A stretch of 64,000 nt of DNA from assembly GCA_945877765.1 (NCBI GenBank), contig CAMDWQ010000011.1:2641-66640 (forward strand), read 5' to 3'. The notes below the pieces were generated by a model. That model worked only from the letters and a program-made list of their open reading frames with translations, was not told where the DNA came from and made no database searches. Both the position numbers and the translations under genes were made by a program. This stretch comes from Candidatus Omnitrophota bacterium (lineage in GTDB: Bacteria; Omnitrophota; Gorgyraeia; 2-02-FULL-51-18). Positions 232-26,789 of this stretch are shown here, in pieces. Positions within the stretch are counted from its first letter, which is position 1; the number at the start of each line of letters is the position of its first letter.

Positions 232-2315
232 TATCTAAACTCGACCGCATAGCGAGATTTAAGATCACGCCCCACGTTTTCCTGAAGCGACTGAATTTCA
301 CTGTCAGTAAAAGTCCCTGTTTCTTTCTGATAAGCCAATGAAAATGCTAAGCTTCGCTTGCCTGGGGCAATATTCCTTCCTATATATTGGTCAAAAAGGA
401 CCACTTCCCTCAAATTTGGCTGAGCGCTCGATTTCATAAGCTCTTGGAGCTCGACCACCGAGATTGTCTCATCCGCAATAAAAGCAAGATCCCGGCGCAC
501 CACAGGAAATTTAGAAACCGGCTTCACCTTACCCGCTAAAAGAGGCCTCGCAAGAATCTCATCTAAAATGATTTCGGCGTAATACCCCTGGTGAGGAATA
601 TCAAAATTTTTCAACACTGCCGCCGACACGCACCCGACCCTTGCCAATAGAAGACCCTCTTGCGAAATATTTACTGTCTGATCCAATCCCATACTTTGAT
701 CGGCATCTTTCCAGCTAGCGTTTTGAGCCCCGATAAACTGCAGTACGTTGGCCACAATTCCTTTTAAATCATAAAATGACGCGTCCGACTTCCGTTGCCA
801 ATTATTTTCAAAAGAGCCGTAAATCAAAAGACCCAGCACCGTCACTTCACGGTTGTCCTGATAACAATTACCGACTTCAAATAGCTTAAGCCCTGCCGCT
901 TTGCGGTGAATATTAAAGACAGCTGCCTCCAACATTCCCGGCAAAAGCAAAGGCCTAAAAAACTCTTGTGCCGCGCTTGTGGTATTGACGACGCGATGCG
1001 CCTTTTCAAGATCAAAACCCGCATCCTTAAGAACCTTCGCCGACATTAAACTATACGTGATAATTTCCGAGAATCCAAGGGCTTCCATGAATTTTTTTAT
1101 TCCAGGGGTCCGTACTGCCTTTAGGCTCTCTGGGCTCGCTATGCCATACCGAGTCGACGGGATCAGCGTAGGGATCTTCTCAAAACCTTCAATGCGGAGA
1201 ATCTCCTCCACCAAATCTTCCTCTTGGCTGATATCGCGTCGATACGAACTCGGTTGGACCAAAATTTTATCTTTCCCAGAAACTTTAGCTGCTATAGAAA
1301 GCGCCTTCAAAATAGCCACTATCCTCTTCTGAGAGACCTTCATCCCCAAAATCTTCTCAACACGGCCGACACGTAAGACAATATCCGCTAGTTTCTTGGT
1401 ACCCAGACTACCCTTTTCAACAAGACCCGAAACCTCCTGCCCCCCCGCCCATTCCAGAATGAGTTCGGAAGCACGTCTTGAAGCGCTAGCCACACCCGCA
1501 GGATCCACCCCACGCTCAAAACGATAGCTCGAATCCGTTGAGATTTTACATTTGCGGGCTGCCTGCCGCACGAGCGCCGGGTCAAAATAAGCGGCTTCTA
1601 AAAGAACGTTCTTGGTTGCGTGTGTCACTTCAGTAAGTTTGCCGCCAATCACACCGGCAATGGCAATCGCCCGCTCGACATCCGCCACAACAAGTGTCTT
1701 TTCATCTAACGTATATTCAATGCCGTCAATTCCCAGAAATTTTTCACCCTTACGGGCATACCGCACAATAATCTTAGCGCCCTTAATCTTGTCAAAATCA
1801 AACGCATGCAACGGCTGTCCCGATTCAAACAACACAAAATTGGTCGCATCCACCACGTTGGAAATAGCCCGTGTGCCCGTCAACTCAAGAAGCTCTTTGG
1901 CTTCTAGTGGCGACGATTTCACCGTCACATTCTGTATCAACCGGCCGGTGTAAAGCGGACAGGCTTTTTTGTCTTCGATGGTAATACCAAATGTCATTCC
2001 CGAATGTTTTAACCGGGAATCATGTCTGGTTTGGTCCCTCGACTTGGCTCGGGATGGCTTTGCCTTTTCTTTATTTTTATAAGCAGATGGCAAAGTCACT
2101 TTCTTTCCCGTCAGTGCCGACATCTCATGTGCCAACCCCAAAATCGAAAGACAATCCGGCCGATTCGTCGTCACCTCAAGCTCGATGACAACCTCGTCCC
2201 CTTTTTTCTCAACCGCCTCGACTTTGGTACCTGACATCGTAAGCATCTCTTCCAGCTTTTCTGCGGAGAGATTGCACTCGATGTATTTTTTTAACCAGCG
2301 AATGGGAAGTTTCAT
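231..2315 (-). CDS. pheT: phenylalanine--tRNA ligase beta subunit
   Basis: 694-aa ORF with PheT-like N-terminal tRNA-binding and B3/4 regions (NRPDCLSILGLA, ACPLYTGR); adjacent to pheS. Confidence 0.9.
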   Translation of the reverse strand: MKLPIRWLKKYIECNLSAEKLEEMLTMSGTKVEAVEKKGDEVVIELEVTTNRPDCLSILGLAHEMSALTGKKVTLPSAYKNKEKAKPSRAKSRDQTRHDSRLKHSGMTFGITIEDKKACPLYTGRLIQNVTVKSSPLEAKELLELTGTRAISNVVDATNFVLFESGQPLHAFDFDKIKGAKIIVRYARKGEKFLGIDGIEYTLDEKTLVVADVERAIAIAGVIGGKLTEVTHATKNVLLEAAYFDPALVRQAARKCKISTDSSYRFERGVDPAGVASASRRASELILEWAGGQEVSGLVEKGSLGTKKLADIVLRVGRVEKILGMKVSQKRIVAILKALSIAAKVSGKDKILVQPSSYRRDISQEEDLVEEILRIEGFEKIPTLIPSTRYGIASPESLKAVRTPGIKKFMEALGFSEIITYSLMSAKVLKDAGFDLEKAHRVVNTTSAAQEFFRPLLLPGMLEAAVFNIHRKAAGLKLFEVGNCYQDNREVTVLGLLIYGSFENNWQRKSDASFYDLKGIVANVLQFIGAQNASWKDADQSMGLDQTVNISQEGLLLARVGCVSAAVLKNFDIPHQGYYAEIILDEILARPLLAGKVKPVSKFPVVRRDLAFIADETISVVELQELMKSSAQPNLREVVLFDQYIGRNIAPGKRSLAFSLAYQKETGTFTDSEIQSLQENVGRDLKSRYAVEFR
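1992..2060. repeat. ~70-bp dyad-symmetric intergenic-type repeat (GTCATTCCCGAA family), in-frame copy inside pheT
   Basis: gtcattcccgaatgttttaaccgggaatcatgtctggtttggtccctcgacttggctcggg matches the intergenic repeat family. It encodes the Lys/Arg/Ser-rich stretch PSRAKSRDQTRHDSRLKHSGM of PheT. Confidence 0.7.
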
Positions 2316-3157
2316 TTTTTCTTTATCTTTTTTGCTTCAACCACCATTTTTTTATCATCAGCTTTAACTTTACGCTCCAACTTTTTGATATCTTCTTCCG
2401 CGTGTAAATTTTCAGGCTTAATCCCACTCTTTGCCAATAAGTCCCGAACATCTTTGTTATTTTTTACATGCTCTCCTGAAATGGGGCTCTCGCCTTTCAG
2501 ATCTTTCTTTCTAACGTTAAAGTTAGTTATTTCAGTCGCCAAATCTTTCGCTTTGATGGTGATTGTAGGTAAGAAATCGGCCAACGGACGATTTTCGGGA
2601 ATCCTCATCTTGCTCTTCATTTGTAAAGTCGTATATCCGCCAAATAAGGCCTGATCCCCTTTGCTTCTCATTCTTCCAAAACCCGGGCCATCGACCCCAC
2701 GCTCGTAAACAAGCCCTGAAAGTTCGTTTTCAGTGGTGACTAGCTTTTGTCGCGCGTGAAGTCTTTCGACGAGCTTGATTCGTTCTTGAAGAAGCTCTTG
2801 TTTACGCGTCTGAATAGCAAAATAACTTTGGGCAAAAGCTATAGCTTCTTTCTTCGGGTCGCCATTCTGCGCTATTAAATAACAAGCATAACGAGTCAAC
2901 GCTATATCATCTATTTCCCTCTCACTACCAGACCCCAATAAGACCATTTTGTTGACGTCAACAAAATGGTCTTCTATTCTCTGCCCTGCCTTCCCACAGG
3001 CTAATTTAGCCTTTTCAATGACTTGAACAAAATTTCTCCACTCAGTGTATTCGAGTAACTCTTGTATGTTACGCGCAAACCAAAACTCTATACCCTCTTT
3101 TTCAAAAGCAGCCTGCTCAAAATTTTTGTTTAATTTAATAACTAGCTCTTTTTCCAT
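2312..3157 (-). CDS. dinD: DNA damage-inducible protein D homologue
   Basis: The region WRNF..V...A..AC......H...FV...KMV.LGSG..RE..D..L.RYACYL..QNGDP.K...A.AQ.YFAIQTR.QEL aligns with E. coli DinD. The gene overlaps the pheT start by 4 nt. Confidence 0.75.
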   Translation of the reverse strand: MEKELVIKLNKNFEQAAFEKEGIEFWFARNIQELLEYTEWRNFVQVIEKAKLACGKAGQRIEDHFVDVNKMVLLGSGSEREIDDIALTRYACYLIAQNGDPKKEAIAFAQSYFAIQTRKQELLQERIKLVERLHARQKLVTTENELSGLVYERGVDGPGFGRMRSKGDQALFGGYTTLQMKSKMRIPENRPLADFLPTITIKAKDLATEITNFNVRKKDLKGESPISGEHVKNNKDVRDLLAKSGIKPENLHAEEDIKKLERKVKADDKKMVVEAKKIKKK

Positions 3158-3161
3158 AAAA

Positions 3162-4160
3162 TCAAAACTGCCTCAAAAACCGCAAATCATTTTCAAAAAA
3201 GTGCCGGATATCCTCGACGCCGTATTTGAGCATGGCTAATCTCTCAACACCCATCCCAAAAGCAAACCCTGTATATTTTTCCGAATCAATCTTCACCGAT
3301 TTTAAAACTTGCGGATGCACCATGCCCGCCCCGAGCACTTCCAACCATGAATTTCTAGCCTCCGACCAAATATCAATCTCAGCGCTCGGCTCAGTAAAAG
3401 GGAAAAAATGAGGCCGAAAACGCAGCTTGGTCCCTTTGCCAAAAAACTCCTGCGCGAAAGCAAAGAGGACTCCCTTTAAATGGGCAAAACTTACTCCTTC
3501 ATCGACCATCAACCCTTCGATTTGGTGAAACATAAAAGAATGCGTCGCATCCGTCGCATCGGGACGATATACTTTTCCGGGAGCGATAATTTTAAGCGGC
3601 GGTTTTGTTTTTTCCATCACGCGCACTTGTACCGGCGATGTCTGACTGCGAAGAAGTCTGCCGCTATCAAGATAAAAAGTATCAAAACTGTCTCGCGCTG
3701 GGTGATTGAGCGGAATATTGAGCGCTTCAAAATTATAATACTCCGTCTCCGCCTCAGGCCCCTCGACTAAATCAAATCCCAGATGTCTAAAAATACCAAT
3801 GACTTCATCGATGACCTGCGTGAGCGGATGAAGCGTCCCTGGAGAATAAAACGTGCCTGGCATCGAAGCATCAATTTTTTTGTAGGCGTGGGCAGAGAAA
3901 GTGCCGAGTGTTTTTTGTTTGTCGGAAAAAAGAGACTCGATCGCGTTTTTGACTCGGTTGAGCTCCTGTCCTGCTTCCCGCTTTTTGTCAGAGGGGACCT
4001 GAGACATTTGCGCAGAAACAGCCGCCAAGAGCCCTTTTCGGCCAAGATATTTTATTTTGGCTTCCTCAAAATGCGCGGCTTCCGTCAAAAGCGTAATTTC
4101 TGCCCGAGCCTCAATTTCGATTTTTTTTAAGTCTTCAATCATAATATCCCGTAGATACAT
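3162..4160 (-). CDS. pheS: phenylalanine--tRNA ligase alpha subunit
   Basis: 332-aa ORF with class II aaRS motifs (FRPHFFPFTEPS, GAGMVHP...GFAFGMGVERLAM). Confidence 0.9.
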   Translation of the reverse strand: MYLRDIMIEDLKKIEIEARAEITLLTEAAHFEEAKIKYLGRKGLLAAVSAQMSQVPSDKKREAGQELNRVKNAIESLFSDKQKTLGTFSAHAYKKIDASMPGTFYSPGTLHPLTQVIDEVIGIFRHLGFDLVEGPEAETEYYNFEALNIPLNHPARDSFDTFYLDSGRLLRSQTSPVQVRVMEKTKPPLKIIAPGKVYRPDATDATHSFMFHQIEGLMVDEGVSFAHLKGVLFAFAQEFFGKGTKLRFRPHFFPFTEPSAEIDIWSEARNSWLEVLGAGMVHPQVLKSVKIDSEKYTGFAFGMGVERLAMLKYGVEDIRHFFENDLRFLRQF

Positions 4161-4168
4161 CCCAACAA

Positions 4169-4238
4169 TGTCATTCCCGAATTTTTTAATCGGGAATCAT
4201 GTCTGGTTTGATCCCCGATTAGAGACTTCGGGGATGAC
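4169..4238. repeat. ~70-bp dyad-symmetric intergenic repeat (GTCATTCCCGAA family)
   Basis: tgtcattcccgaattttttaatcgggaatcat...gatccccgattagagacttcggggatgaca lies between pheS and rplT. It consists of two tandem hairpins with outer GTCAT/ATGAC inverted ends. Confidence 0.75.
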
Positions 4239-4305
4239 AGGCGTATAAATACGAAACACCAGGACAAGCACAGCTTGTCTGGTGTTTATATTTAACTAAG
4301 CAAAT

Positions 4306-4653
4306 TTATGCTTTCGCGATATTACAGATTTCGCTGAAAACCTTTTGTTCGCTGTTTGCCAAATCCGCCAGGATCTTGCGATCAATTTCAATCTTGGCTT
4401 TTTTTAGTCCACCGATCAGACGGCTGTAAGTCAGGCCGTTTTCAACAGCGCCCGCGGAAATACGGGTAATCCAGAGTTTGCGAATAACCGACTTCGAATC
4501 GCGGCGATCGCGTGTGGCAAATGCCATCGCGCGCTGAACCGTTTCACGAGCGGTACGGTAAAGCTTACGGCGTCCGCCGACAAATCCTTTAGCGCGTTTT
4601 AAAAATTTTTTCCTGCGTGCGCGACCCGCGGGAACTGTTTTAGCTTTAGGCAT
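4306..4653 (-). CDS. rplT: 50S ribosomal protein L20
   Basis: 115-aa ORF MPKAKTVPAGRARRKKFLKRAKGF...; bL20 signature. Confidence 0.95.
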   Translation of the reverse strand: MPKAKTVPAGRARRKKFLKRAKGFVGGRRKLYRTARETVQRAMAFATRDRRDSKSVIRKLWITRISAGAVENGLTYSRLIGGLKKAKIEIDRKILADLANSEQKVFSEICNIAKA

Positions 4654-4843
4654 ACGGCAACAATCTCCTTATTTGCTTTTCAAATGTCTTCGCGACAAAA
4701 TCGCCTTTTCTGAGCTGGCGCTTGCGCTTTGACGACTTGTGGTTTAATAGATGCCTTTTACCGGCACGCATCTTTTTGAATTTGCCGCTCTTCGTTTTCC
4801 GCAAACGTTTAGCGGTAGATCGGTTTGTTTTTAACTTTGGCAT
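4646..4843 (-). CDS. rpmI: 50S ribosomal protein L35
   Basis: 65-aa basic ORF MPKLKTNRSTAKRLRKTKSGKFKK; overlaps the rplT start. Confidence 0.9.
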   Translation of the reverse strand: MPKLKTNRSTAKRLRKTKSGKFKKMRAGKRHLLNHKSSKRKRQLRKGDFVAKTFEKQIRRLLPYA

Positions 4844-4856
4844 TTTTCCCTTTCGT

Positions 4857-4928
4857 TGTCATTCCCGCGAAAGCGGGAATCAAACCATTATTTGTTATGA
4901 TCCCCGATTAAAAATTTCGGGGATGACG
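4857..4928. repeat. dyad-symmetric intergenic repeat, GCGAAAGC-loop variant
   Basis: tgtcattcccgcgaaagcgggaatca...gatccccgattaaaaatttcggggatgac between rpmI and infC. Confidence 0.75.
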
Positions 4929-4935
4929 CGTCGCG

Positions 4936-5391
4936 TCATTTAGGCATGATGATCATCGTGATCATCTTACCCTCGAGCACTGGCATTCTTTCGATTTCAC
5001 CCAGAGGGGCGATATCCTGTGCCAGACGCTCCAATACTTTTCTGCCTTTGTCCACGTAGTTCATCTCGCGTCCGCGAAACACCATCGTGATTTTGGCCTT
5101 GTCCCCTTCTTTAAGAAAACGCTCGATGCTATGAAGCTTCACCTGATAGTCGTTTTCCTCGATGAAAGGATGATACTTCACCTCTTTTAGGTGAATCACT
5201 TTCTGCTTCTTCCGGGCTTCCTTTTCCTTCTTCTCTTGGTCGTACTTAAACTTGCTGAAGTCCATGATGCGGCAGACGGGCGGTACGGCCGCTCCGGCGA
5301 CTTCGACCAAATCAAGCTCAGCTTCTCGTGCCATTTGAAGTGCAGCCTGCACGGTGACTACACCGGCCTGATTTCCATTATGATCGATCAA
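4936..5391 (-). CDS. infC: translation initiation factor IF-3
   Basis: ORF ...EVKYHPFIEENDYQVKLHSIERFLKEGDKAKITMVFRGREM... has IF-3 N- and C-domains. The true start is probably a non-AUG codon upstream, as is usual for infC. Confidence 0.85.
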   Translation of the reverse strand: MIDHNGNQAGVVTVQAALQMAREAELDLVEVAGAAVPPVCRIMDFSKFKYDQEKKEKEARKKQKVIHLKEVKYHPFIEENDYQVKLHSIERFLKEGDKAKITMVFRGREMNYVDKGRKVLERLAQDIAPLGEIERMPVLEGKMITMIIMPK

Positions 5392-5476
5392 CCGGACTTG
5401 AGGGACCCGGATCCCCTCATTGATACGCGTTTTATCCTTTGAAATGAAAAACCTCCTGTGTTTATTCGTTACGTTC

Positions 5477-5538
5477 TGTCATCCTCGCGAAAGCGGGGAT
5501 CTGTTTTAGTACGGATTCCCGCTTTCACGGGAATGACA
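5477..5538. repeat. dyad-symmetric intergenic repeat, GCGAAAGC-loop variant
   Basis: tgtcatcctcgcgaaagcggggatc...gattcccgctttcacgggaatgaca between infC and thrS. Confidence 0.75.
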
Positions 5539-5544
5539 TTTTTT

Positions 5545-7290
5545 TTAAATTTTTGCCTGCAGTTCGCTGTTTGTTCTTTTTAAAAAATCCTCAAGTGCCA
5601 TCGGGCCCAAATCACCCAGTACCCTGGACCGCACCGCTATTTTTTCAGCCTGAATTTCTTTGTCACCCAAAACAATCATGTAGGGTATTTTTTCCGTCTG
5701 TGCAGTGCGAATTCTAGACCCCAGCGTATCGGAGGGGGATAAAATTTCACAACGTAACCCAGCCGTCTTGAGCTCCCCTAAAATTTTTTCCGCAAATGCC
5801 TGATGCGTGTCTTTCACCGGAATCAAACTGACCTGCACCGGACTCAGCCACAAAGGCAGCGCTCCCGCATAATGCTCTAATAGCGTCCCCATGAAGCGCT
5901 CGACACTTCCCAAGATCGCTCGGTGCAACATCACCGGCCGATGCTTGTTCCCATCCGACCCTGTATATTCTAAATCAAAACGCTCCGGAAGTGCAAAATC
6001 ACATTGAATCGTACTGCACTGCCACGAACGCCCCAAAGCGTCCTTAATCTTGATATCAATCTTGGGCCCGTAAAAAGCACCCTCGCCTTCACAGATTTTA
6101 TAAACGACATTCTTCGAATCCAAAGCACCTTTAAGGGCCCCCGTCGCCCGGTCCCAGTCCAAATCCGTCCCAATCGACCCCTCGGGCCGTGTACTGATTT
6201 CAATTTCTCTCTCTTTAAACCCAAAAGTATCCAGCGTATAGAATACAAAATCTACCACGCGCTCAATTTCTTCCTGAAGCGCATCCGGCATGCAAAAAAT
6301 ATGCGCGTCATCCTGGGTAAAATTCCGCACGCGCAAAAGCCCATGCAATACTCCCGATTTTTCATTGCGGCAGACATTTCCCAATTCAAAAAATCGTAGC
6401 GGCAGATCACGATAACTGCGAATCTTGGTCTTAAAAATCAGCATGTGCCCCGGGCAATTCATGGGCTTGATCGCGTACTCTTTTTCGTCCTCGGTCTTAA
6501 AAATAAACATGTTTTCTTTATAATGCGAATAATGCCCCGACTTGATCCACACATCGCTCTTCAAAATCTGCGGCCCGATGACAAATTGGTAATCGCGCTT
6601 CAAATGCTCTTCTTTGACAAATTGCTCGATCAAGTGCCGCAGGAAAGCCCCTTTGGGATGATAAAAAATAAGCCCCGGCCCGCCGTCTTCCTGAATCGAA
6701 AAAAAGTCTAATTCTTTCCCAATTTTCCGGTGATCGCGTTTCTTGGCTTCTTCGCGGACACGGATAAACTCATCGAGTTCATTTTTTGAAAAATAGGCGG
6801 TGCCGTAGATCCTTTGCATCATCTGATTTTTCGCATCGCCCTTCCAATAGGCTCCTGCGATGCTTGTGAGCTTGAAAGCTTTGATCAACCCAGTCGAGTC
6901 CGCGTGCGGATATTTGCAAAGATCGCAGAATTCGCCGTCAGTGACGATCGAAAGCTCCTGCCCTTTGGCAGACAGCTCGTCGATGACTTCGCATTTTAAT
7001 GTTTCATTTTTAGCGCTAAAGATCGATTTGGCTTCTGCGGGTGAAACCATTTTTTTCTCGAAAGGGAAATTGGATCTGATAATTTTATCCATTTCCTTTT
7101 CGATACCCTTCAACGCCTCTTCACTCAGTGGCTCGGGCAACACAATGTCATAATAAAATCCCTCTTCCACCGGCGGCCCAAATCCAAGCTTGGCATTGGG
7201 ATAGATCCGTTTCACCGCCTGCGCAAGTACATGCGAACAGCTGTGGCGTAATTTATCGAGGTCGGTGTATTGTTTGACGATTTTTGTCAT
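5545..7290 (-). CDS. thrS: threonine--tRNA ligase
   Basis: 581-aa class II aaRS with ThrRS motifs (HRAILGSVERF, CPGHMLIF, FRDLPLRF). Confidence 0.9.
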   Translation of the reverse strand: MTKIVKQYTDLDKLRHSCSHVLAQAVKRIYPNAKLGFGPPVEEGFYYDIVLPEPLSEEALKGIEKEMDKIIRSNFPFEKKMVSPAEAKSIFSAKNETLKCEVIDELSAKGQELSIVTDGEFCDLCKYPHADSTGLIKAFKLTSIAGAYWKGDAKNQMMQRIYGTAYFSKNELDEFIRVREEAKKRDHRKIGKELDFFSIQEDGGPGLIFYHPKGAFLRHLIEQFVKEEHLKRDYQFVIGPQILKSDVWIKSGHYSHYKENMFIFKTEDEKEYAIKPMNCPGHMLIFKTKIRSYRDLPLRFFELGNVCRNEKSGVLHGLLRVRNFTQDDAHIFCMPDALQEEIERVVDFVFYTLDTFGFKEREIEISTRPEGSIGTDLDWDRATGALKGALDSKNVVYKICEGEGAFYGPKIDIKIKDALGRSWQCSTIQCDFALPERFDLEYTGSDGNKHRPVMLHRAILGSVERFMGTLLEHYAGALPLWLSPVQVSLIPVKDTHQAFAEKILGELKTAGLRCEILSPSDTLGSRIRTAQTEKIPYMIVLGDKEIQAEKIAVRSRVLGDLGPMALEDFLKRTNSELQAKI

Positions 7291-7658
7291 TTAGAAATAT
7301 ACCGCACCCCTCCGATATTTTTAAAATCTTGGTCTTGCGTCCACAAAACAGCCTCATACAAGCGTGCTGTCGCAAGAATAATACTGTCCGCCAACGGCAA
7401 TTTCAATTCATATCCTAACCGGGCGGCGCTCATCGCTAAATTGGTATCCAAATCAACCACTTGCCCCTGCCGCATGTGAGCGACGGCCTTCAGAGCTGAT
7501 TGCTCATCGCTGGTTTGACGCACTTTTTTAAAAACTTCCGTGATGGTAATTGAAGGCACCAAAAGCTCCGCAACGTTTTCAATCGGCTTCGCAAATACCT
7601 TGGCATTTCTACTTTCGGCAAAAAATTCGAGCCAACCAGAAGAGTCCACTACATTCAT
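7287..7658 (-). CDS. vapC: PIN-domain ribonuclease toxin VapC
   Basis: 123-aa ORF MNVVDSSGWLEFF...DSIILATARLYEAVLWTQDQDF shows the PIN acidic-residue pattern. Its stop overlaps the thrS start in an ATGA context. Confidence 0.75.
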   Translation of the reverse strand: MNVVDSSGWLEFFAESRNAKVFAKPIENVAELLVPSITITEVFKKVRQTSDEQSALKAVAHMRQGQVVDLDTNLAMSAARLGYELKLPLADSIILATARLYEAVLWTQDQDFKNIGGVRYISK

Positions 7659-7861
7659 AGACGGTCTTTTTCTCTTTCGATAGCCGTATCAATCCCCTTC
7701 AAAAATCCACGAAGACTTTTCATGGGTTGAATAGGAATCAATTCAATCCGGTTGTCGTATTCCAGTATTTCCACTTTTTGCCCGGCCTTCAAATGCAAAT
7801 GATTTCGAATTTCTTTGGGTATCACCACTTGAAACTTAGGCGAAATCGTCATGGCGCTCAT
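7655..7861 (-). CDS. vapB: AbrB/SpoVT-family antitoxin VapB
   Basis: 68-aa ORF with QVVIPKEIRNHLHLKAGQKVEI, an AbrB/MazE swapped-hairpin motif; overlaps vapC by 4 nt. Confidence 0.7.
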   Translation of the reverse strand: MSAMTISPKFQVVIPKEIRNHLHLKAGQKVEILEYDNRIELIPIQPMKSLRGFLKGIDTAIEREKDRL

Positions 7862-8156
7862 AAACCCTCCTTTTTCTTTATCGATGGCACTACCGTAATA
7901 CTATATACCAATCGATTGAAAATTTCAATAGCGGGTCTTAGCATTACTTTTAGAAAAAGACTCAAGACCGACTTTCATCAATGCTTCTGATTCACGTGTA
8001 TTTTCGGGATGTTTCTTATAGGCCGTTATATACTGTTTTTCTAGATCAGTGCATTGTTTGGCGATTTTAGACATAATTTATTTAATGCTTAATCCTATTA
8101 TTAATTTCTACTACCCACTGCTTTTTTTCGAGTCTTGTATTGCCTACTCCTAGATA

Positions 8157-8249
8157 CCCGTGACGGGTGGCGCGGAGGGTGGGCGCCCATTGACCCGCAG
8201 GGCGAAGCCTGAGGACGCAATGGGCTCCCGCAGCGACAGGCCCCGTCAC
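8157..8249. repeat. GC-rich ~90-bp hairpin repeat, copy 1 (REP-like)
   Basis: cccgtgacgggtggcgcggagggtgggcgcccattgacccgcagggcgaagcctgaggacgcaatgggctcccgcagcgacaggccccgtcac is a long imperfect hairpin (cccattg/caatggg; gtgacggg/cccgtcac). A second copy lies at 10277-10367. Confidence 0.7.
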
Positions 8250-8262
8250 CACACTAAATACT

Positions 8263-8336
8263 TGGGCAATACAGGACTCGAACCTGTGACCTTTTCCATG
8301 TCAAGGAAACGCTCTAACCAACTGAGCTAATTGCCC
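8263..8336 (-). tRNA. tRNA-Val (GAC)
   Basis: Reverse complement GGGCAATTAGCTCAGTTGGTTAGAGCGTTTCCTTGACATGGAAAAGGTCACAGGTTCGAGTCCTGTATTGCCCA gives a cloverleaf with a 7-bp acceptor stem, TTCGAGT T-loop and anticodon GAC. Confidence 0.8.
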
Positions 8337-8343
8337 TAAAATC

Positions 8344-9645
8344 TTACTTAATCTTTGTTACGACCGTAGTTTCTTTTTCTTTATCCTTGTGCAGGAGCGA
8401 TCTTAGCTTCTCCAGATCAAGACCGCTCTCGTCGAAAAATTGTTGGAGATTGGCCCCGCCTTCCGCATCAAGGTTTAAACCAAAAAATTTCTGCGCATTT
8501 GCTCCGCTCATGATCCATTTAATATCGGCTTTCTGAATCGATTCCGCCATCGCGTGAAACTTCGCCATCATCACTTCTTTATGGATGTCGAGCATTTTCA
8601 CATTTAACGCCGTTTCATTAAACTGTTTGAGCGCTTCGGCCAATTTTAAAGTACCAGCGGCTTCAGCCTCTTTTTTAATTTGGATGACATTCGCTTCCGC
8701 GCGGCCTACGGCTTCAATCTCGTTGGAATGACCTTCGGCTTCTACCGTCGATTTGATACGCTGTGCCAGCGCGTGCTGTTCAATTTTTTGTTTTTCAATT
8801 TCAGCGGTACCTACCTGGATTTTTCTGGCGGCTTCGACTTTTTGAATATTGGCCTCGGCTTCTTTGAGAGCGATTTGCTGATTCTTATTCTGCTCAGAAA
8901 TGCCAATCTGCTGATCTTTCTCGATCTGACGTTTGCGGTAAATTTCCTCGGCTTCGGCCTTGGCAATTTCCGCTTCCTTATTGGTAGTTGCCACACGAAT
9001 ATCCGCGTCACGCCTGATTTCAGCGGCCACCTTGCGCTCGATATCCGCAATGATGGTACTGCCCGCTGCATCCTTAATGTCTTTTAATTCCAGATCGACC
9101 AACTGAATTCCCCATTTAGGAAATACCATTTCAACCTCTTTGGTGATCGCTTCATCCAACAGCTGGCGATTCATATAAATATCCAAAATCGTTTGCTTGG
9201 TAACCACGGTACGTCCGATACTTTCCATTATCGCTCGCAAATCCTCGGAAAGGCGCATGAAATCAAAACCCATTTCTTTTTCGCTGTCAGAAAGCACCAA
9301 GCGCTCAGCCGCTAAATTTAAATCCTTGATATTGACAAAGCAAACGATATCGCAGACAAATTTGGCCATGTTCTTATCGTTGAGCTTGATGTCGTTAACA
9401 GGGATGGCAAGATTAGACAGCGGCAACCGATTTAATTTCGTAATAAAGGGAATAAACCAGTAAGCGCTCTTGCCCTCACGAATGGAAAAAATAGATTTTG
9501 TATTCCGCAATACGCGAATATGGGCTTCATTAACAGGAACGACCCGGTACAGGCCCACCATACCGCCAAGAATGTGCCGTAGAAAAAAAACCAATGTTAG
9601 AAATACTGCCACTATCACAACCATGGTGATGAAAAATAAATTCAT
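8344..9645 (-). CDS. flotillin / SPFH (band-7) domain membrane protein
   Basis: One N-terminal TM helix (MNLFFITMVVIVAVFLTLVFF), an SPFH core, and a long Ala/Glu/Lys/Gln coiled-coil (AEIAKAEAEEIYRKRQIEKDQQ...). Start taken at the internal ATG at 9645. Confidence 0.75.
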   Translation of the reverse strand: MNLFFITMVVIVAVFLTLVFFLRHILGGMVGLYRVVPVNEAHIRVLRNTKSIFSIREGKSAYWFIPFITKLNRLPLSNLAIPVNDIKLNDKNMAKFVCDIVCFVNIKDLNLAAERLVLSDSEKEMGFDFMRLSEDLRAIMESIGRTVVTKQTILDIYMNRQLLDEAITKEVEMVFPKWGIQLVDLELKDIKDAAGSTIIADIERKVAAEIRRDADIRVATTNKEAEIAKAEAEEIYRKRQIEKDQQIGISEQNKNQQIALKEAEANIQKVEAARKIQVGTAEIEKQKIEQHALAQRIKSTVEAEGHSNEIEAVGRAEANVIQIKKEAEAAGTLKLAEALKQFNETALNVKMLDIHKEVMMAKFHAMAESIQKADIKWIMSGANAQKFFGLNLDAEGGANLQQFFDESGLDLEKLRSLLHKDKEKETTVVTKIK

Positions 9646-10082: not shown

Positions 10083-10131
10083 TTGTAAATTCTCCGTTTA
10101 AACCCAAATCGCGACCATCCTTCAAAAACCC

Positions 10132-18242: not shown

Positions 18243-18256
18243 AAATTTTATGTTAC

Positions 18257-18327
18257 TGTCATCCCCGAATTTTTTAATCGGGGATCATACCTAGTTTGAT
18301 TCCCGATTAAAGCCTTCGGGAATGACA
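18257..18327. repeat. dyad-symmetric intergenic repeat (GTCATCCCCGAA family)
   Basis: tgtcatccccgaattttttaatcggggatcat...gattcccgattaaagccttcgggaatgaca between yidC and mnmG. Confidence 0.75.
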
Positions 18328-18336
18328 CAACTTAAA

Positions 18337-19947
18337 TTAAGTCGCGGTAGATTTTTTTAAATAGAGCTGATACGACGTCATAAAAATCGTATTGGTAAGC
18401 CAGTAAAGCACCAGCGCAGAGGGCATGGTGTAAAAAATAAATCCAAAAATTACCGGCATCATCACCATCATCATTTTTTGCTGTTGAGCGACCATAGGAT
18501 CCTGGCCTTCCATGCTCATCGTCGTCATGCGCTGCTGCAGGACCATGGCGGCAATCATGATGATGGGCAGCACGTGAATCTCATTGCCCAAGAAAGGAAG
18601 AGTAAAGGGCAGTGGGACCGCGTCCGGCGAAGAAAGATCATGAATCCATAGAAAATCCGCGCCAATCAATTTTACAAATTTTGAAATAGCCACGTAGAGC
18701 GCGATAAATACCGGCATCTGCAACAGCATCGGCAAGCATCCGCCAAATGGATTCACTTTATGCTTTTTATAAAATTCCATGGTTTCTTTGTTGAGACGCG
18801 TGGGGTTGTCTTTATACTGCTCGCGCAATTTAGCAATCTGCGGCTGTACGGCCTGCATGCGTTTCATGGAAAGAAGGCTTTGCCGGGTAAAAGGGAAGAG
18901 GCATAGATTGATTAGAAGTGTGAGCGCGATGATCGCCAGTCCATAATTTCTAAAAATTTTGTGGAGCATTTCAAGCGCTCCGATAAATATTTTTCCTATC
19001 AGATCCATCTTTCCAAAATTGACGATGTCCTCAAGGCCTAATGGCAGCAGCTCGCCTAAATCATTGGGGCCCATATACACTAAAAATTCGTGAGTGATGG
19101 ACTCGCCCGCGGCCAAGGACACTTTCGGGGAAACAAGCGCCGCAGAAAAATGATGATCGCCAAGACCCGTGACAACTCCGCTAAATGTATTGGCTTGTTT
19201 GGGTTTCACAATAATAGAAAAGTGCCGGTCCTTGATGGCAACCCACTCCAGAGATCCTTCGCTGTGGACTGTTTTGCCAAGCTTGGATTCGGTGACGTGC
19301 CGTAACTTAGCTCTGTTTTCAACCATGGAGAAAAAATTAGCCGCGATGTACTGCGCATCAATCGAATGCCGCGCGGGGATGCTCGAGCCGGCGAAAAGTT
19401 CATACTGAAGATCGATGGCTTTTTCAGAGGTATTTTTAAAAACAACCGAAAGATCCGCCGAATAACCCGAGCGGCGAAATGCATAATTTTTGGTGACCTG
19501 CACTTCATTACTAAGAACAGGGGACACTAAACTTACACTGTCCGCGCCCATAGAAATCTTAGCGGTCTGATCCTGCACAATCGCGCTGGGGGAGAGAATC
19601 TCAACTGAAAGAGGTGCACCGATAGAAGATTTGGCGGAAACAAGGCTCAAGGGGCCCTTATTTTCAATATCCATGTAATCGATAAACGAAACCTTACGGA
19701 CAACACCGCCCTTGGGATTAAACTCTAAGCGAAGTTTATCATTTTTAAAGAGCACATCATCCGTTTCGGAAATATTCTCGAAAGGTTTGGCACTGACAAC
19801 GGTTGTCTTATTCTCCGAGACGTTTTTGGAAACAATCGCGGCTTTTTGTTCTTGGCCGTACTCAGGATAAAATTTTTGCAACACCACCGGATAAAAACCA
19901 AGAATCAAGAAAGCGAACGCCAGCGCCAAAAGTACTTTTTTATCCAT
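18337..19947 (-). CDS. yidC: membrane protein insertase YidC
   Basis: 536-aa ORF with N-terminal TM helix, periplasmic domain and the conserved C-terminal 5-TM YidC/Oxa1 core. Confidence 0.9.
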   Translation of the reverse strand: MDKKVLLALAFAFLILGFYPVVLQKFYPEYGQEQKAAIVSKNVSENKTTVVSAKPFENISETDDVLFKNDKLRLEFNPKGGVVRKVSFIDYMDIENKGPLSLVSAKSSIGAPLSVEILSPSAIVQDQTAKISMGADSVSLVSPVLSNEVQVTKNYAFRRSGYSADLSVVFKNTSEKAIDLQYELFAGSSIPARHSIDAQYIAANFFSMVENRAKLRHVTESKLGKTVHSEGSLEWVAIKDRHFSIIVKPKQANTFSGVVTGLGDHHFSAALVSPKVSLAAGESITHEFLVYMGPNDLGELLPLGLEDIVNFGKMDLIGKIFIGALEMLHKIFRNYGLAIIALTLLINLCLFPFTRQSLLSMKRMQAVQPQIAKLREQYKDNPTRLNKETMEFYKKHKVNPFGGCLPMLLQMPVFIALYVAISKFVKLIGADFLWIHDLSSPDAVPLPFTLPFLGNEIHVLPIIMIAAMVLQQRMTTMSMEGQDPMVAQQQKMMMVMMPVIFGFIFYTMPSALVLYWLTNTIFMTSYQLYLKKSTAT

Positions 19948-19974
19948 GAGGTAAACTTTCTTTTTTTACTTAAA

Positions 19975-20036
19975 TGTCATCCTCGCGAAAGCGAGGATCA
20001 GCATTAGTTTAGATTCCCGCTTTCGCGGGAATGACA
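19975..20036. repeat. dyad-symmetric intergenic repeat, GCGAAAGC-loop variant
   Basis: tgtcatcctcgcgaaagcgaggatc...gattcccgctttcgcgggaatgaca between yidD and yidC. Confidence 0.75.
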
Positions 20037-20040
20037 ATCG

Positions 20041-20286
20041 TTATTTGGAAGCAACCGGGTCATAGCCGCCCTCTGAAAAAGGGTGGCACTTCAAAATCCT
20101 TTGCGTCACTAACCACAACGCTTTGAAAAAATTCTGCGTCTCAAACGCTTCTCTTGCATAAACCGAACACGTCGGATGAAATCGGCAAGCACGCCATCCC
20201 AACGCCCGAAAAAAACCAGAAACAATTCCCACCGCAAAAATCACGCTCTTCATTAAAATTAAATTAACTTGGCGTCCATATCTCAT
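20041..20286 (-). CDS. yidD: membrane protein insertion efficiency factor YidD
   Basis: 81-aa ORF with [14 protein letters not shown] (YidD/DUF37 signature). Confidence 0.85.
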
Positions 20287-20530
20287 GCATCGCCTCTTTG
20301 GCCTGGGAAAGGCCGATTTCTCCCGGGTTTTTCATCACACGGAAGGTATAAACCTTCTCTTTTTTTAAACTAAACTCAAGCCGCAACGCTTCCTTAATCA
20401 GCCGTCGTAAGCGGTTACGCCTAGTAGCGAGCTTGACTACCTTTTTTGGCACGAGGATTTTTAGCGTTAGTACTTTGGACTCTCGAAGAGTTGCTGGCCG
20501 GCTGGAAACCGTCAGCGAAAGCCAACCCAA
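20264..20530 (-). CDS. rnpA: ribonuclease P protein component
   Basis: [14 protein letters not shown] (RnpA RNR motif); position between rpmH and yidD is conserved. Confidence 0.7.
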
Positions 20531-20531
20531 G

Positions 20532-20670
20532 ACTAGGGGGTGAGGCGCTTTCTGCCCTTTTGACGACGTCTCTTAAGCACCTTGCGACCGTCAGCCGATC
20601 TCATCTTCTTTCGGAAACCGTGGGTTCTCTTGCGTTTTCTATTCGATTTATTCGTCAGTGTTTTTTTCAT
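20532..20670 (-). pseudogene. rpmH: 50S ribosomal protein L34, frameshifted in this sequence
   Basis: From ATG at 20670 the translation is [10 protein letters not shown] then a stop (TAG). Shifting -1 at gaatTag restores [35 protein letters not shown], a perfect L34. So + strand 20638-20642 carries one extra A (ctaAttcg). Confidence 0.6.
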
Positions 20671-21003
20671 GGCTTCCTGTTCCGTTTTAGTTATAAATTG
20701 AAAGAGGGATTATAGCATAGACCCGAGGTGGCACGTCAAGCAGGGAATCTCCCGCCGCCGGTAAGAACCCAACCCTTCAATCGTGGGCCCCTCCAGAACG
20801 CCACAATTTCGTTTGCTAATCCAAGACCCCGTTGCTATAATACCGACTTCATCATGGGCCCCCAATCTATCAATGGTAGCCTGTGCATAACTTGTTAATA
20901 ATTTAGCTTTATTTAATTTCTGATTTTATATTCGTTTTACATACATAAATATATGCATTAATTGATGTTATGACGTCTATTTAATCAGACTGAGAAACCT
21001 TTA

Positions 21004-21021
21004 AGGATAACGTGTGGATAA
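21004..21021. promoter_or_regulatory. DnaA boxes at the dnaA start
   Basis: aggataacgTGTGGATAA: two adjacent TTATCCACA-type boxes overlapping the GTG start of dnaA (autoregulation site). Confidence 0.55.
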
Positions 21022-22390
21022 GTTAAGCAATCAAGACCCCTTGGAATTGTGGTCCAAGGCCCTGGCAAGCCTCCAAAAAGAGTTTGATTCCCAGCTTTTC
21101 GACCGTTGGCTTAAGCCTATTAAAATCAGAGAGTTGGACGAAAACGAAGTCGTCCTGATTGTCCGCGATGACTTTTTTAAATCCTGGGTGATGGATCACT
21201 ACCAGGACAAAATCTATTCCGCCTTGAAAAATATACTCAACAACCCCGAGATATCCATCCGCTTCATTATAGAGACGGAGGCGATTGAAAAAAGCCAGCC
21301 GCTTGGCGACACGATGCCAGCCCCTCGGAGCATGGCCCAAAATTTTACCAGCACTCCATCCATGCCAATAGAAAATGTGCTCAACACCAAATACACTTTT
21401 GATAGCTTTGTCGTGGGACCGTCCAATCGCTTCGCCCATGCCGCCTCGATGGCCGTCGCCGAATCGCCCGCTAAATCTTACAATCCTCTATTTATTTATG
21501 GACCCGTCGGTCTAGGCAAGACTCATTTGATGCAAGCGATAGGGCAAGAAGTGCTCAGAAGAAATCCCTCGAGCAAAGTGTTGTATATCACCAGCGAAAA
21601 ATTCACCAATCAACTCATCAACGCGATCAAAACCGGCACGACCGTCAAGTTTAGAGAAAAATACCGCTCCGTCGACTGCCTCCTTATCGATGACATTCAC
21701 TTCATCGCGGGCAAAGAAGCAACCATGGAAGAATTTTTTCATACATTCAACACGCTTTATGATTCCCACAAGCAAATCGTCGTCTCCAGCGACAAACCCC
21801 CCAAAGATATCAATAATCTCGAGGAGAGACTGGTGTCGCGTTTTGAATGGGGCTTAGTGACCGATATCCAGCCTCCTGATTTTGAAACCCGCACCGCTAT
21901 TTTGAGAAAAAAAGCAGAGCGCGAAGGCCTCCACATTCCCGATTCCGTCACTTTTTTTATCGCGGACAAAATTAAATCCAATATTCGTGAACTCGAGGGC
22001 GCACTGATCCGCGTCGTCGCTTATTCTAAGCTGGTAGGAAAAGAAGTGGATGAAATTGTAGCGCAAGACGTGTTAAAAGATTTGATTGTGGAGAACCAAA
22101 AGAAAATCACGGTTGACCTTATTCAAAGGAAAGTGGCAGAATACTTCGAAATACGGCCATCGGATATGACGGCCAAGCGGCGATCCAAGAGTGTGGCTTA
22201 CCCGCGGCACGTGGCAATGTATTTATCCCGTGAAATGACGGGTTTTTCTTTTCCTGAATTAGGAGAACATTTTGGCGGGCGAGATCACACTACTATTTTA
22301 CATGCGTGTGATAAGATAAAAAAAGATATCAAAAAAGAGCCCAAGACCAAAACTTTAATCGATAAGCTAATTGTTGAAATAAAAAAATAA
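21014..22390 (+). CDS. dnaA: chromosomal replication initiator DnaA
   Basis: 458-aa ORF with GTG start, Walker A GPVGLGKTHL and domain IV DNA-binding region. Confidence 0.95.
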   Translation: MDKLSNQDPLELWSKALASLQKEFDSQLFDRWLKPIKIRELDENEVVLIVRDDFFKSWVMDHYQDKIYSALKNILNNPEISIRFIIETEAIEKSQPLGDTMPAPRSMAQNFTSTPSMPIENVLNTKYTFDSFVVGPSNRFAHAASMAVAESPAKSYNPLFIYGPVGLGKTHLMQAIGQEVLRRNPSSKVLYITSEKFTNQLINAIKTGTTVKFREKYRSVDCLLIDDIHFIAGKEATMEEFFHTFNTLYDSHKQIVVSSDKPPKDINNLEERLVSRFEWGLVTDIQPPDFETRTAILRKKAEREGLHIPDSVTFFIADKIKSNIRELEGALIRVVAYSKLVGKEVDEIVAQDVLKDLIVENQKKITVDLIQRKVAEYFEIRPSDMTAKRRSKSVAYPRHVAMYLSREMTGFSFPELGEHFGGRDHTTILHACDKIKKDIKKEPKTKTLIDKLIVEIKK

Positions 22391-22600
22391 TTTTACCTGT
22401 GATTAATTGTGGATAAGTTTACGCTTTTAAGTTTTAGTTCTACAGGTTGTTGATAACCATCTATTTATCCACAGGTTATAGTATTTGTAAGTCTTTTATT
22501 TTTAAGTGGTTATAAATTTTATGCTGAATTCACAAACTCTACTACTATTACTGTTTTAATTGAGAATGTTAAATAATATAAAGCTAGGGGTTTACTATTC
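22391..22600. promoter_or_regulatory. probable oriC (DnaA-box cluster plus AT-rich unwinding region) in the dnaA-dnaN spacer
   Basis: TGTGGATAA at 22408-22416, perfect TTATCCACA at 22465-22473 and weaker tgataacc. An AT-rich tract follows at 22490-22590. Confidence 0.55.
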
Positions 22601-23713
22601 ATGAAAATAAATACAATTAAGGAAGAATTATTAAAAGGAATTCAGACCGTACAAAATGCGGTAAGCAGTAAAAATACATTACCCATTCTTTCCCATGTTT
22701 TATTAGAAGCAAAGAAAGGCGGTATATTTCTCACCGCCACTGATCTTGAAATTGGGATATCGATGAAAGTAGGTGGTGAAGTCATCGAGGAAGGTGCGAT
22801 TACGATCCCAGCGCGTAAATTTAGTGAGATCATTAAAGAATTACCTTCTCAACAACCCATTTATATTTCAGTGAAGAAGACTCAATCTATTACAATCGAA
22901 TCAGGAAAAAGTTATTTTCGTTTAGTGGGTTTATCAAAAGATGATTTTCCTCAACTACCTGATTTACAATCCATTAATCCTAAAGAAATAGATATCGTTA
23001 AAATTCCGCAAAAAAATCTAAAAAACATGATTCAACTTACCGCCTTCGCGATGAGTCATGATGAAACGCGGTATGTATTGAATGGAATATTATTTAATTT
23101 TAAAGATAAAATATTAAAATTAGTTGCCACTGATGGGAGAAGGCTCGCGGTGATCGAAAATGAAATTTTAGTTTCAGGAAATTTTCGGCGAGACGTGATT
23201 CTCCCAATGAAAACCATTCAAGAATTAAGCCGCAACTTAACCGAAGAGGGAGAAGTAATTTTTTATTTCAAACAAAACCAACTCCAGATTAATGTCGGCG
23301 CTATTAATATCACTTCTCGTTTAATTGAAGGCGAATATCCCAATTACGATCAGGTAATTCCAAAAAAAATAAAAGAAGAATTAAAACTAGGTACTCAAGA
23401 TTTTCTCCAAGCCACAAGACGCGCGAGTATTTTAACCAATCAAGATTCACAGTCGATCAAGATCAATCTCATTAAAGACCGGATGATTATTACCAAGAAT
23501 ACTCCCGATTTAGGGGAAGTCCGTGAAGAGATTGAAGTAAATTATAAAGGTGGTGAATTAACGATTGGTTTTAATCCCGTCTTTTTAATTGATGTGTTAA
23601 AAAATATTGAGGATGAAAGTATTCACTTTGGATTTATTGATCCCGAAAAGCCGGCAGTGATCCGTTGTGGTGAAAATTATACGTATATTGTTCTGCCGAT
23701 GCAGGTCAGCTGA
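22601..23713 (+). CDS. dnaN: DNA polymerase III beta sliding clamp
   Basis: 370-aa ORF with three-domain clamp architecture (MKINTIKEELLKGIQTVQNAV...). Confidence 0.95.
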   Translation: MKINTIKEELLKGIQTVQNAVSSKNTLPILSHVLLEAKKGGIFLTATDLEIGISMKVGGEVIEEGAITIPARKFSEIIKELPSQQPIYISVKKTQSITIESGKSYFRLVGLSKDDFPQLPDLQSINPKEIDIVKIPQKNLKNMIQLTAFAMSHDETRYVLNGILFNFKDKILKLVATDGRRLAVIENEILVSGNFRRDVILPMKTIQELSRNLTEEGEVIFYFKQNQLQINVGAINITSRLIEGEYPNYDQVIPKKIKEELKLGTQDFLQATRRASILTNQDSQSIKINLIKDRMIITKNTPDLGEVREEIEVNYKGGELTIGFNPVFLIDVLKNIEDESIHFGFIDPEKPAVIRCGENYTYIVLPMQVS

Positions 23714-23725
23714 TGACACCCCTAA

Positions 23726-23850
23726 TGTCATCCCTAATGTCATCCCCGAAATTATTTATCGGGGATCATACTCGGTTTGATTCCCGATTAAAACCTTCGG
23801 GAATGACAGTGGACAGGTTTGATTCCCGATTAAACATTTCGGGAATGACA
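23726..23850. repeat. dyad-symmetric intergenic repeat, 1.5 tandem copies
   Basis: tgtcatccctaatgtcatccccgaaattatttatcggggatcat...gattcccgattaaaaccttcgggaatgacagtggacaggtttgattcccgattaaacatttcgggaatgaca. Confidence 0.75.
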
Positions 23851-23872
23851 TTATAATAATGACAGTGTAGAG

Positions 23873-26715
<2,843 letters not shown>

Positions 26716-26718
26716 CAC

Positions 26719-26789
26719 TGTCATCCCCGAAATCTTTAATCGGGGATCATGTATAGGTTTGATTCCCGATAAATACTTTCGGGAATGAC
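26719..26789. repeat. dyad-symmetric intergenic repeat (GTCATCCCCGAA family)
   Basis: tgtcatccccgaaatctttaatcggggatcat...gattcccgataaatactttcgggaatgaca between gyrB and gyrA. Confidence 0.75.

Follow-up and report, generated by a model that had tools for sequence, protein, structure and literature searches.

The 64-kb window analysed here (contig CAMDWQ010000011.1 of assembly GCA_945877765.1, from an uncultured Omnitrophota bacterium; all coordinates are window positions) contains a family of short hairpin repeats that occur mostly as inverted pairs between genes. These repeats are probably CGTC-tagged repetitive extragenic palindromic (REP) sequences, the Ssn-related motifs (SRM) that include the NTS/dRS3 repeat of Neisseria; a Ssn nuclease encoded elsewhere in the genome would bind and nick them as single-stranded DNA (ssDNA). 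The family is known and crosses phyla. What is new is an example in an uncultured Omnitrophota genome, with a heterodimeric subfamily that carries long loops.

A covariance model built from an alignment of the 16 single hairpins, and scored over all 64 kb with filters off, finds 16 full units at eight loci (Table 1) with scores of 39–59 bits and E values of 1e-8 to 1e-13; the next-best match has 11 bits. All eight positions named in a preliminary description of the window carry the repeat, both by reading of the sequence and by the model. The string GTCATYCCCG, with at most one mismatch, has 22 matches in the window compared to 6.3 ± 2.6 in shuffled sequences, and none of 100 shuffles reaches 22. 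The 16 units all lie within 1987–26795, and the model finds none in 26.8–64 kb, in agreement with the earlier remark that the accessory half of the window has no copies. If the repeats were spread evenly, the probability of finding all eight loci in the first 26.8 of 64 kb would be about 0.001.

Each unit consists of a (T/C)GTC tag, an 8-bp stem ATYCCCGM/KCGGGRAT that encloses a loop, and a C. The tag is TGTC in 15 units and CGTC in one. Loops come in two forms, GAAA in five units (short-loop) and about nine AT-rich nucleotides ending in TTWA in 11 units (long-loop). The preliminary description counted four independent cores per element; we find instead an inverted pair of one hairpin unit of ~31 nt (long-loop) or 27 nt (short-loop), with the TGTC ends outward. 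Its three copies with tetraloop stems correspond to the three loci where short-loop GAAA units occur, except that one of these loci combines a short-loop with a long-loop unit. The G, T and C of the tag, the first stem pairs A-T and T-A, and the C directly after the stem are invariant in all 16 units, while the loops vary. In the tail only the first base, C, is invariant; the tail reads CAT or CAA in 12 units and CTG, CCG, CAG or CTA in four. Pairing is preserved in 99% of the stem cells, compared to 90% when columns are shuffled and 23–59% when the 3′ partner is slid, and there are compensatory changes at three stem pairs: Y-R at position 3, C-G/U-A at position 5 and A-U/C-G at position 8. 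Of the stem mismatches on the tagged strand, 20 are T.G and one is C.A, an asymmetry that would be expected of a hairpin that matters on one strand.

The seven complete pairs are all inverted with tags outward and 11–17 nt between the units, and in all seven a T-type unit (ATTCCCG) is combined with one of C-type (ATCCCCG or ATCCTCG). The same holds for 36 of the 42 tags-outward pairs in the related genomes described below, giving 43 heterotypic pairs of 49 with the window included (P = 3e-8 against random pairing). Spacers show partial conservation among the long-loop pairs (CAT-N5-6-GTTTG) and again between the two short-loop pairs, and therefore the pair seems to be copied as one unit. Folded as ssDNA, the pairs reach –17 to –21 kcal/mol (z scores of –3.5 to –7.5) and can adopt two structures, a couple of separate hairpins or a single long, imperfect one. 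What had been taken for one and a half copies at 23726 does contain more than a single pair; it is a 12-nt 5′ half-unit followed by a pair and then by a third unit.

Table 1 Hairpin repeat loci in the window, with their ssDNA folds, and copies of a second, unrelated palindromic family (last row).
Feature	Position	Genomic context	Units (strand)	ssDNA fold
Inverted pair, decayed	1992..2060	inside pheT (ORF 231-2315, minus)	T-type long-loop 1992-2023 (+); degenerate partner ~2030-2060	z = -0.9
Tags-outward pair	4169..4239	rplT stop (4306) to pheS start	T-type long-loop 4169-4200 (+); C-type long-loop 4208-4239 (-)	-18.8 kcal/mol, z = -5.2
Hybrid pair	4857..4928	infC stop (4936) to rpmI start (4843)	T-type short-loop 4857-4883 (+); C-type long-loop 4897-4928 (-)	
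Short-loop (GAAA) pair	5477..5538	thrS stop (5545) to infC RBS/ATT start	C-type 5477-5503 (+); T-type 5512-5538 (-)	z = -7.5
Long-loop pair	18257..18327	yidC stop (18337) to mnmG/gidA start (18242)	C-type 18257-18288 (+); T-type 18296-18327 (-)	z = -7.1
Short-loop pair	19975..20036	yidD stop (20041) to yidC start (19947)	C-type 19975-20001 (+); T-type 20010-20036 (-)	z = -7.05
Cluster	23724..23850	dnaN stop (23713) to dciA start (23873)	half-unit 23724-23735; C-type 23738-23769 (+); T-type 23777-23808 (-); T-type 23819-23850 (-)	
Long-loop pair	26719..26790	gyrB stop (26715) to gyrA start (26802)	C-type 26719-26750 (+); T-type 26759-26790 (-)	
Second palindromic family	47809-47895, 48692-48762, 48907-48965, 48980-49050, 53296-53373, 58257-58287			

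The window covers the region of the replication origin, with two gene blocks identified from its open reading frames (ORFs), from Pfam calls on identical metagenome contigs and from translations. A minus-strand block runs through pheT, a Bro-N gene, pheS, rplT, rpmI, infC, thrS, a putative vapBC pair and on to mnmG, yidC, yidD and rnpA, and a plus-strand block holds dnaA, dnaN, dciA, gyrB and gyrA. The seven intergenic loci all lie between co-directional genes. They begin 3–24 nt past the stop codon of the upstream gene, or 66 nt in the case of rplT, and stop 8–27 nt ahead of the next start. The copies had been described as intergenic, which holds for these seven but not for the copy at 1992, which is in frame inside pheT. 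Across the eight loci, the orientation of T-type relative to C-type units shows no consistent pattern with gene direction or with the replication origin.

The repeat is identified by the exact string ATTCCCGCGAAAGCGGGAAT, which is found in a paper on Neisseria. It belongs to a superfamily defined by Di Nocera, De Gregorio and Rocco (2013, BMC Genomics 14:522; PMC3733652) as CGTC-tagged REPs, with a CGTC tag (variants TGTC and CCTC), an 8–9-bp stem starting with AT, a loop of 4–5 nt and a short tail that is mostly CCA. CGTC REPs occur mostly as tags-outward (HH) dimers near the 3′ ends of co-directional or convergent ORFs, with no flanking transposase. Some copies are intragenic and in frame, including copies in tRNA synthetase genes; exceptional loops are seen in a few hosts and heterodimers in some. 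They are reported never to flank genes for REP-associated Y1/HUH transposases (RAYT), and the survey concluded that they have no dedicated enzyme. Family CGTC-1 corresponds to dRS3 in Neisseria, and families CGTC-1 and CGTC-4 correspond to RPE-6 and RPE-4 in Rickettsia (PMC3733652).

The window's repeats have the tag, the stem and the tags-outward dimers near 3′ ends that characterize CGTC REPs. Their likeness to CGTC-1 includes the CGTC/TGTC tag, an 8-bp stem starting with AT, the 4-nt loop of the short-loop units, a 3-nt tail, tags-outward dimers near the 3′ end of the upstream ORF between co-directional genes, and an in-frame intragenic copy. They differ from the surveyed repeats in having loops of mostly 9 nt rather than 4–5 nt, and a CAA or CAT tail rather than CCA. 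With Rickettsia RPE-4 and RPE-6 they share the CGTC superfamily and an in-frame copy in an essential gene (here pheT, ~21 residues in a variable linker), but the Rickettsia elements are often intragenic, compared to one of eight loci here, and the stem sequences differ. Omnitrophota are usually assigned, we take it, to the PVC group (Planctomycetes, Verrucomicrobia, Chlamydiales). The host is a further difference, as the survey lists no CGTC repeats for that group. The REP- or RPE-like nature proposed in the preliminary description is upheld by the match to this superfamily, including Rickettsia RPE-4/6 and Neisseria dRS3, and by the presence of the unit in many phyla.

Chenal et al. (2025, Nat Commun 16:2388; PMC11893778) describe NTS as an oriented 28-nt form of dRS3, CGTCATTCCCGCGMAVGCGGGAATCYRG. 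SsnA, a single-domain GIY-YIG protein, binds NTS as an ssDNA hairpin and cuts a few bases upstream of it. The enzyme is inactive on double-stranded DNA, on RNA and on the opposite strand, and the RNA form is not bound. Three bases before the palindrome are required for cleavage, and the C after the palindrome is required for binding. In several phyla, ssn genes are flanked by SRM, and the system lowers transformation by NTS-bearing DNA (PMC11893778). The bases critical for SsnA, namely GTC and the trailing C, are the invariant ones in all 16 window units. Window units and NTS/dRS3 have in common the tag, stem and trailing base (C/T)GTC-ATTCCCGCG-MAV-CGCGGGAAT-C, a defined hairpin orientation and many copies per genome. 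Compared with the NTS consensus, for which the paper allows one mismatch, the best short-loop unit (20010-20036) has two mismatches and the other short-loop units have three to seven; long-loop units can be aligned only with a gap. In contrast to the clusters around virulence genes in Neisseria, the window has strict inverted pairs of T-type and C-type units, it holds no ssn gene, and its host is an uncultured member of Omnitrophota.

A scan of one genome per species with the pattern GTCATYCCCGAA-N8-TCGGGRATCA matched at least 75 stretches, in which the covariance model finds 145 units, mostly in tags-outward pairs; 75 loci, together 509 kb, form our set of repeat-bearing genome loci. Among the matches listed, the exact unit occurs in metagenome-assembled genomes (MAGs) of Omnitrophota, Planctomycetia, Nitrospirota, Binatia, Desulfobacterota, Ignavibacteria, Bacteroidetes, Elusimicrobia, Leptospiraceae, Calditrichaceae and Bacteriovoracaceae, covering more than ten phyla, and in a cultured Colwellia isolate. 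Since the unit is present in many phyla, the repeat is neither local nor lineage-specific.

The repeats are also associated with genes for Ssn-family proteins. A profile of two GIY-YIG sequences retrieves thousands of PF01541 proteins of 95–110 aa, and the three PF01541 genes examined are all bracketed by inverted CGTC-ATGGCCGG...CCGGCCAT-CCA units. We then scanned metagenomes for the window's unit followed by 15–45 nt and only the motif Y-N10-Y[IV]G, which matched at least 120 loci. A full Ssn-family GIY-YIG ORF lies just downstream of the unit in 117 of the 120 matches listed, with hidden Markov model (HMM) E values mostly of 1e-36 to 1e-49. A second, inverted unit, which was not part of the search pattern, lies downstream of ssn in 94 of the 100 loci with enough sequence. 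Units of the window's own type therefore stand on either side of Ssn-family genes in metagenomes. The units beside ssn genes are mostly short-loop and their tail is mostly CCA. At one locus (L218), ssn is flanked on both sides by TGTC-ATTCCCGC-GAAA-GCGGGAAT-C, which is identical to the short-loop units in the window. Long-loop units flank ssn at two others (L106 and L112), and L112 also has a C-type/T-type long-loop pair like those in the window. The flanked proteins retain the Y-11-Y-47-E spacing of the residues Y6, Y17 and E64 that were mutated as catalytic residues in SsnA. An Omnitrophota MAG encodes a Ssn homolog flanked by TGTC-tagged pairs with a diverged stem, and proteins 85–86% identical to the Ssn query are annotated in Nitrospirae and Deltaproteobacteria. 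Horizontal transfer of the cassette, in line with these proteins, would explain why the repeat is identical across phyla.

We infer that the source organism has a cognate Ssn and that the long-loop units are among its substrates. Once either strand is exposed as ssDNA, whether by uptake of transforming DNA, by conjugation, by replication or by repair, its unit with the reading GTCAT... would fold. A small single-domain GIY-YIG Ssn nuclease, encoded elsewhere in the genome, would bind the folded unit and nick that strand a few bases upstream of its tag, and an inverted pair would offer one cleavable unit per strand. The family would have spread as pairs and single units into gaps just past stop codons, once in frame into pheT, and the inserted repeats would persist largely neutrally. 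What is known of binding and cleavage restricted to ssDNA, of strand specificity and of an effect on transformation comes from the Neisseria literature and would apply here by analogy.

Several observations weigh against assigning the repeats to the Ssn system. The published SRM search string HGTCWYN(0-2)YYVSBRHN(0-5)WNVSBRGN(0-2)RNCYNB matches only 2 of the 16 units (5477-5503 and 5512-5538); the failures are due to loop length or to the base after ATC, and the string is a search tool rather than a functional definition. Unlike Neisseria NTS, 11 of the 16 units carry an AT-rich loop of 9 nt together with a CAA or CAT tail. A search with an HMM built from 120 real Ssn homologs finds no Ssn-family or other GIY-YIG gene in the 64-kb window or in the 509 kb of repeat-bearing loci, and individual GIY-YIG sequences used as probes, together with a regular-expression search near the units, find nothing in the window or in the genome loci. 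NCBIfam and PDB searches with the Ssn-like proteins give no specific family or structure. The metagenome pattern demanded a gene-like motif beside the unit; the scan establishes that cassettes of this kind are common but does not give the fraction of units close to ssn. Even among genomes with more than 200 SRMs, a homolog is reported in 81% and not in all (PMC11893778). Finally, the role in Neisseria, restriction of transforming ssDNA, may be inapplicable to Omnitrophota.

Comparison with relatives reveals that sites are filled in some genomes and empty in others. An Omnitrophota relative (JACPXO01, locus L049) has the thrS-pheS operon in common with the window at ~70% nucleotide identity. 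It carries a single C-type unit after the infC stop, at the same distance as in the window, and the T-type partner is missing; no unit is present in its thrS/infC and rplT/pheS gaps, leaving two of the three operon gaps compared empty. Site occupancy thus differs between the window and this relative. The pair at 26719 has a counterpart in MAG CAZBIH01 (locus L009) that matches it at 96% identity over 74 nt; the PheT of this MAG is 73% identical to the window's. Metagenome contigs identical to the window stop at the repeats, two of them (L001 and L002) at 26713, just before the 26719 pair, and one (L003) inside the 23724 cluster. Such breaks in contigs from other samples are expected for a high-copy repeat. 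Together with the insertion in pheT and the empty gaps, they speak for mobility of the family. In an Omnitrophota MAG (L060, 2696-2767 and 4039-4110), two units have the same ~40-nt insert (CTGTAGCGGTGCGATTTATCGCACGTATTGTAATA) in the loop, which is a case of one small element nested in another.

The copy inside pheT is read in frame as ...KPSRAKSRDQTRHDSRLKHSGMT... and adds ~21 residues (…SRAKSRDQTRHDSRLKHSGMT…) in a variable linker of the protein, behind the conserved NRPDCLS motif. The insert has no equivalent in more than 30 orthologs, among them the PheT of MAG CAZBIH01, and no unit is found in the pheT DNA of that MAG. The T-type unit is intact save for one A.C mismatch, and the fold of this copy is no longer significant (Table 1). 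The named PheT homologs nearest to the window's are from Candidatus Omnitrophota. Other Omnitrophota PheT sequences (P0017, P0006 and P0085) have different extra segments at the same linker, after ...LTGKK..P, for example GLSSPSAAKALADKLRRGSNGEK in P0017. By their sequences, these segments resemble translations of other palindromic repeats, and the linker may be a recurrent landing site. A Bro-N domain gene (2312-3157, minus strand) separates pheS from pheT in the window, and the two genes abut in relatives (gene layout of P0006).

A bolder idea, which we hold only tentatively and to which we assign a small probability, is that the unit-ssn-unit cassette is itself mobile, that Ssn excises and spreads CGTC REPs through an ssDNA intermediate, and that the long-loop heterotypic pairs are a subfamily with a nuclease specificity of its own. 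Hints in this direction are the 94 of 100 ssn genes that are bracketed, the 85–86% identical Ssn proteins in different phyla, the presence and absence of repeats between relatives, the insertion in pheT and the recurrence of 5′ half-units. The half-units are 12–16-nt copies of the tag and first stem arm, found just upstream of full units at three unrelated places: 23724-23735 in the window, ~9607-9621 in L106 and ~7504-7519 in L112, two of them directly upstream of ssn genes. They may be the footprint of a process that copies or cuts units. If this idea is correct, the repeats are non-autonomous riders of a GIY-YIG-based transposition system that is neither HUH nor DDE, and the published motif search misses a long-loop subfamily with its own nuclease specificity.

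An unlikely alternative to recognition by Ssn is that the hairpins act mainly as RNA, as 3′ stabilizers, as RNase processing sites, or as weak terminators or attenuators that tune the expression of neighbouring genes. The seven intergenic loci are certainly transcribed, because they lie between co-directional genes just past stop codons. The stems covary and tolerate T.G pairs, one C-type unit keeps its position behind infC in a relative at ~70% nucleotide identity, and a role as RNA has been argued for many REPs by Di Nocera et al. on the basis of comparable positions (PMC3733652). Hairpin stability, however, does not account for an invariant unpaired GTC tag and trailing C that are conserved across phyla, and the presence of both orientations in each pair leaves no strand preference relative to transcription. 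The preliminary description read the tetraloop stems (GCGAAAGC) as a sign of selection at the RNA level, but GAAA is the loop of the canonical Neisseria NTS hairpin, which is recognized as ssDNA and whose RNA form SsnA does not bind (PMC11893778). Its suggestion that the repeats are terminators fares no better. No unit is followed by a T-run on the sense strand, the only terminators called (5481-5500 and 5515-5534) are both antisense to thrS/infC, and terminator-like sites are not more frequent than in shuffles. Elements also lie inside operons that need read-through (infC-rpmI-rplT and dnaN-dciA-gyrB-gyrA). In a search of the window against Rfam 15 only tRNAs reach the gathering threshold, with weak chance matches (E 0.16–1) over the repeats, and the occupancy of sites differs between relatives. 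As a side effect, the hairpins may still influence the processing or stability of mRNA within these operons.

The units could instead be preferred target or attachment sites for IS110/Piv-type recombinases or filamentous phages, with their abundance reflecting such use. dRS3 is documented as a phage recombinase target in Neisseria (cited in PMC11893778), and the short-loop units are near-identical to dRS3/NTS. We nevertheless regard this explanation as very unlikely, as no IS110-type or phage gene adjoins or interrupts a unit, either among the 16 in the window or among the 145 in related loci, and a role as target leaves the multiplication of the repeats unexplained. Such a role is compatible with recognition by Ssn, and would be secondary to it.

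The inverted hairpin doublet with its short spacer, the ssDNA hairpin formed by the whole pair and the heterotypic partners, like those of Y/Z REPs, also recall the bacterial interspersed mosaic elements (BIMEs) of E. coli and the REPINs of Pseudomonas, and the semi-conserved spacers, which suggest that the pair is copied as a unit, agree with this. The single-copy gene flanked by its own repeats is similar to a "REPtron". That the window's repeats are REPINs, non-autonomous elements mobilized by RAYT, is nonetheless highly improbable. The tag is (C/T)GTC, not the GT[AG]G (as in GTAG) of REPINs and BIMEs, and the gene flanked by units is a GIY-YIG nuclease instead of a Y1/HUH transposase. RAYT, IS200 and IS608 probes find nothing by tblastn in the window or the 75 loci (0.5 Mb). 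All-against-all clustering of the 1,468 ORFs of the repeat-bearing loci gives generic families only, with no recurrent transposase or nuclease, and CGTC REPs are reported never to occur beside RAYT genes (PMC3733652). REPIN sequences are lineage-specific and vertically inherited, whereas the window-type unit is nearly identical across phyla. Least credible of all are the Correia-like reading offered in the preliminary description, a miniature inverted-repeat transposable element derived from a DDE insertion sequence in this case, and a local segmental duplication: the pair does start with TG and end with CA and has long terminal inverted symmetry, but there is no target-site duplication at any of seven pairs and no DDE-type terminal repeat, units also occur singly and as trimers, the flanking DNA is unrelated between copies, and local duplication is refuted by the presence of the family in many phyla.

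Recognition of the repeats as SRM brings an uncultured Omnitrophota genome into the Ssn/SRM system, itself defined only recently, and widens the range of CGTC REPs to many environmental phyla. Surveys based on the SRM string undercount the family, because the string misses most units here, with their long loops and different tail. For annotation, the repeats account for contig breaks, for spurious or extended ORFs and for the 21-residue insertion in PheT. The long-loop and short-loop units in one genome are natural candidate substrates for tests of Ssn specificity, and the filled and empty sites provide material for asking how the repeats move.

Other features of the window deserve mention. 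Downstream of the last repeat, the gyrA ORF (26802-30629, plus strand) encodes 1275 aa because it carries an intein, with the Pfam domains Intein_splicing and LAGLIDADG_3 at ~residues 144-576 splitting the topoisomerase domain. A defence island at 32723-48744, in which no hairpin units are found, encodes a PLD-like nuclease, two ORF6N proteins, a DrmE_C protein, a NERD/helicase protein, a 1657-aa helicase with an MrfA Zn-binding domain and a C5 DNA methylase. Judged from their sequences, these genes together look like a DISARM system, and a DpnI-like enzyme follows them. A ~95-nt direct repeat (34161-34255 and 55071-55166; 83% identical overall, without a mismatch in the last 34 nt) flanks 20.9 kb with defence genes and may mark the ends of an integrated island; no integrase was found among the ORFs scanned. 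A 30-nt palindrome (CCCAACTTGA...CAAATTG...TCAAG) is present in four copies at 34319-35475, 324–454 nt apart, beside the two ORF6N genes. The window segment 34506-34886 has a counterpart of 76% identity in a Planctomycetia-labelled MAG (L026), where it stands right beside one of that MAG's hairpin units.

A second, unrelated palindromic family of ~66 nt, GAATCCGGGGACACGTACCGAATTCC...GGTACGTGTCCCGAGATTC, occurs in the accessory half of the window only (Table 1). Two of its copies are 100% identical, and some copies are followed by short tandem tails similar to GAGATTCC. In the core half, just upstream of thrS, a PIN-domain (VapC-like) ORF (7287-7658) and a small upstream ORF (7655-7861), both on the minus strand, are judged from their translations to form a vapBC pair. 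The infC gene apparently starts at window position 5449 (minus strand) with ATT after an AGGAGG ribosome-binding site (RBS), and its N-terminus is therefore under-called in the ORF list. E. coli infC likewise starts at ATT.

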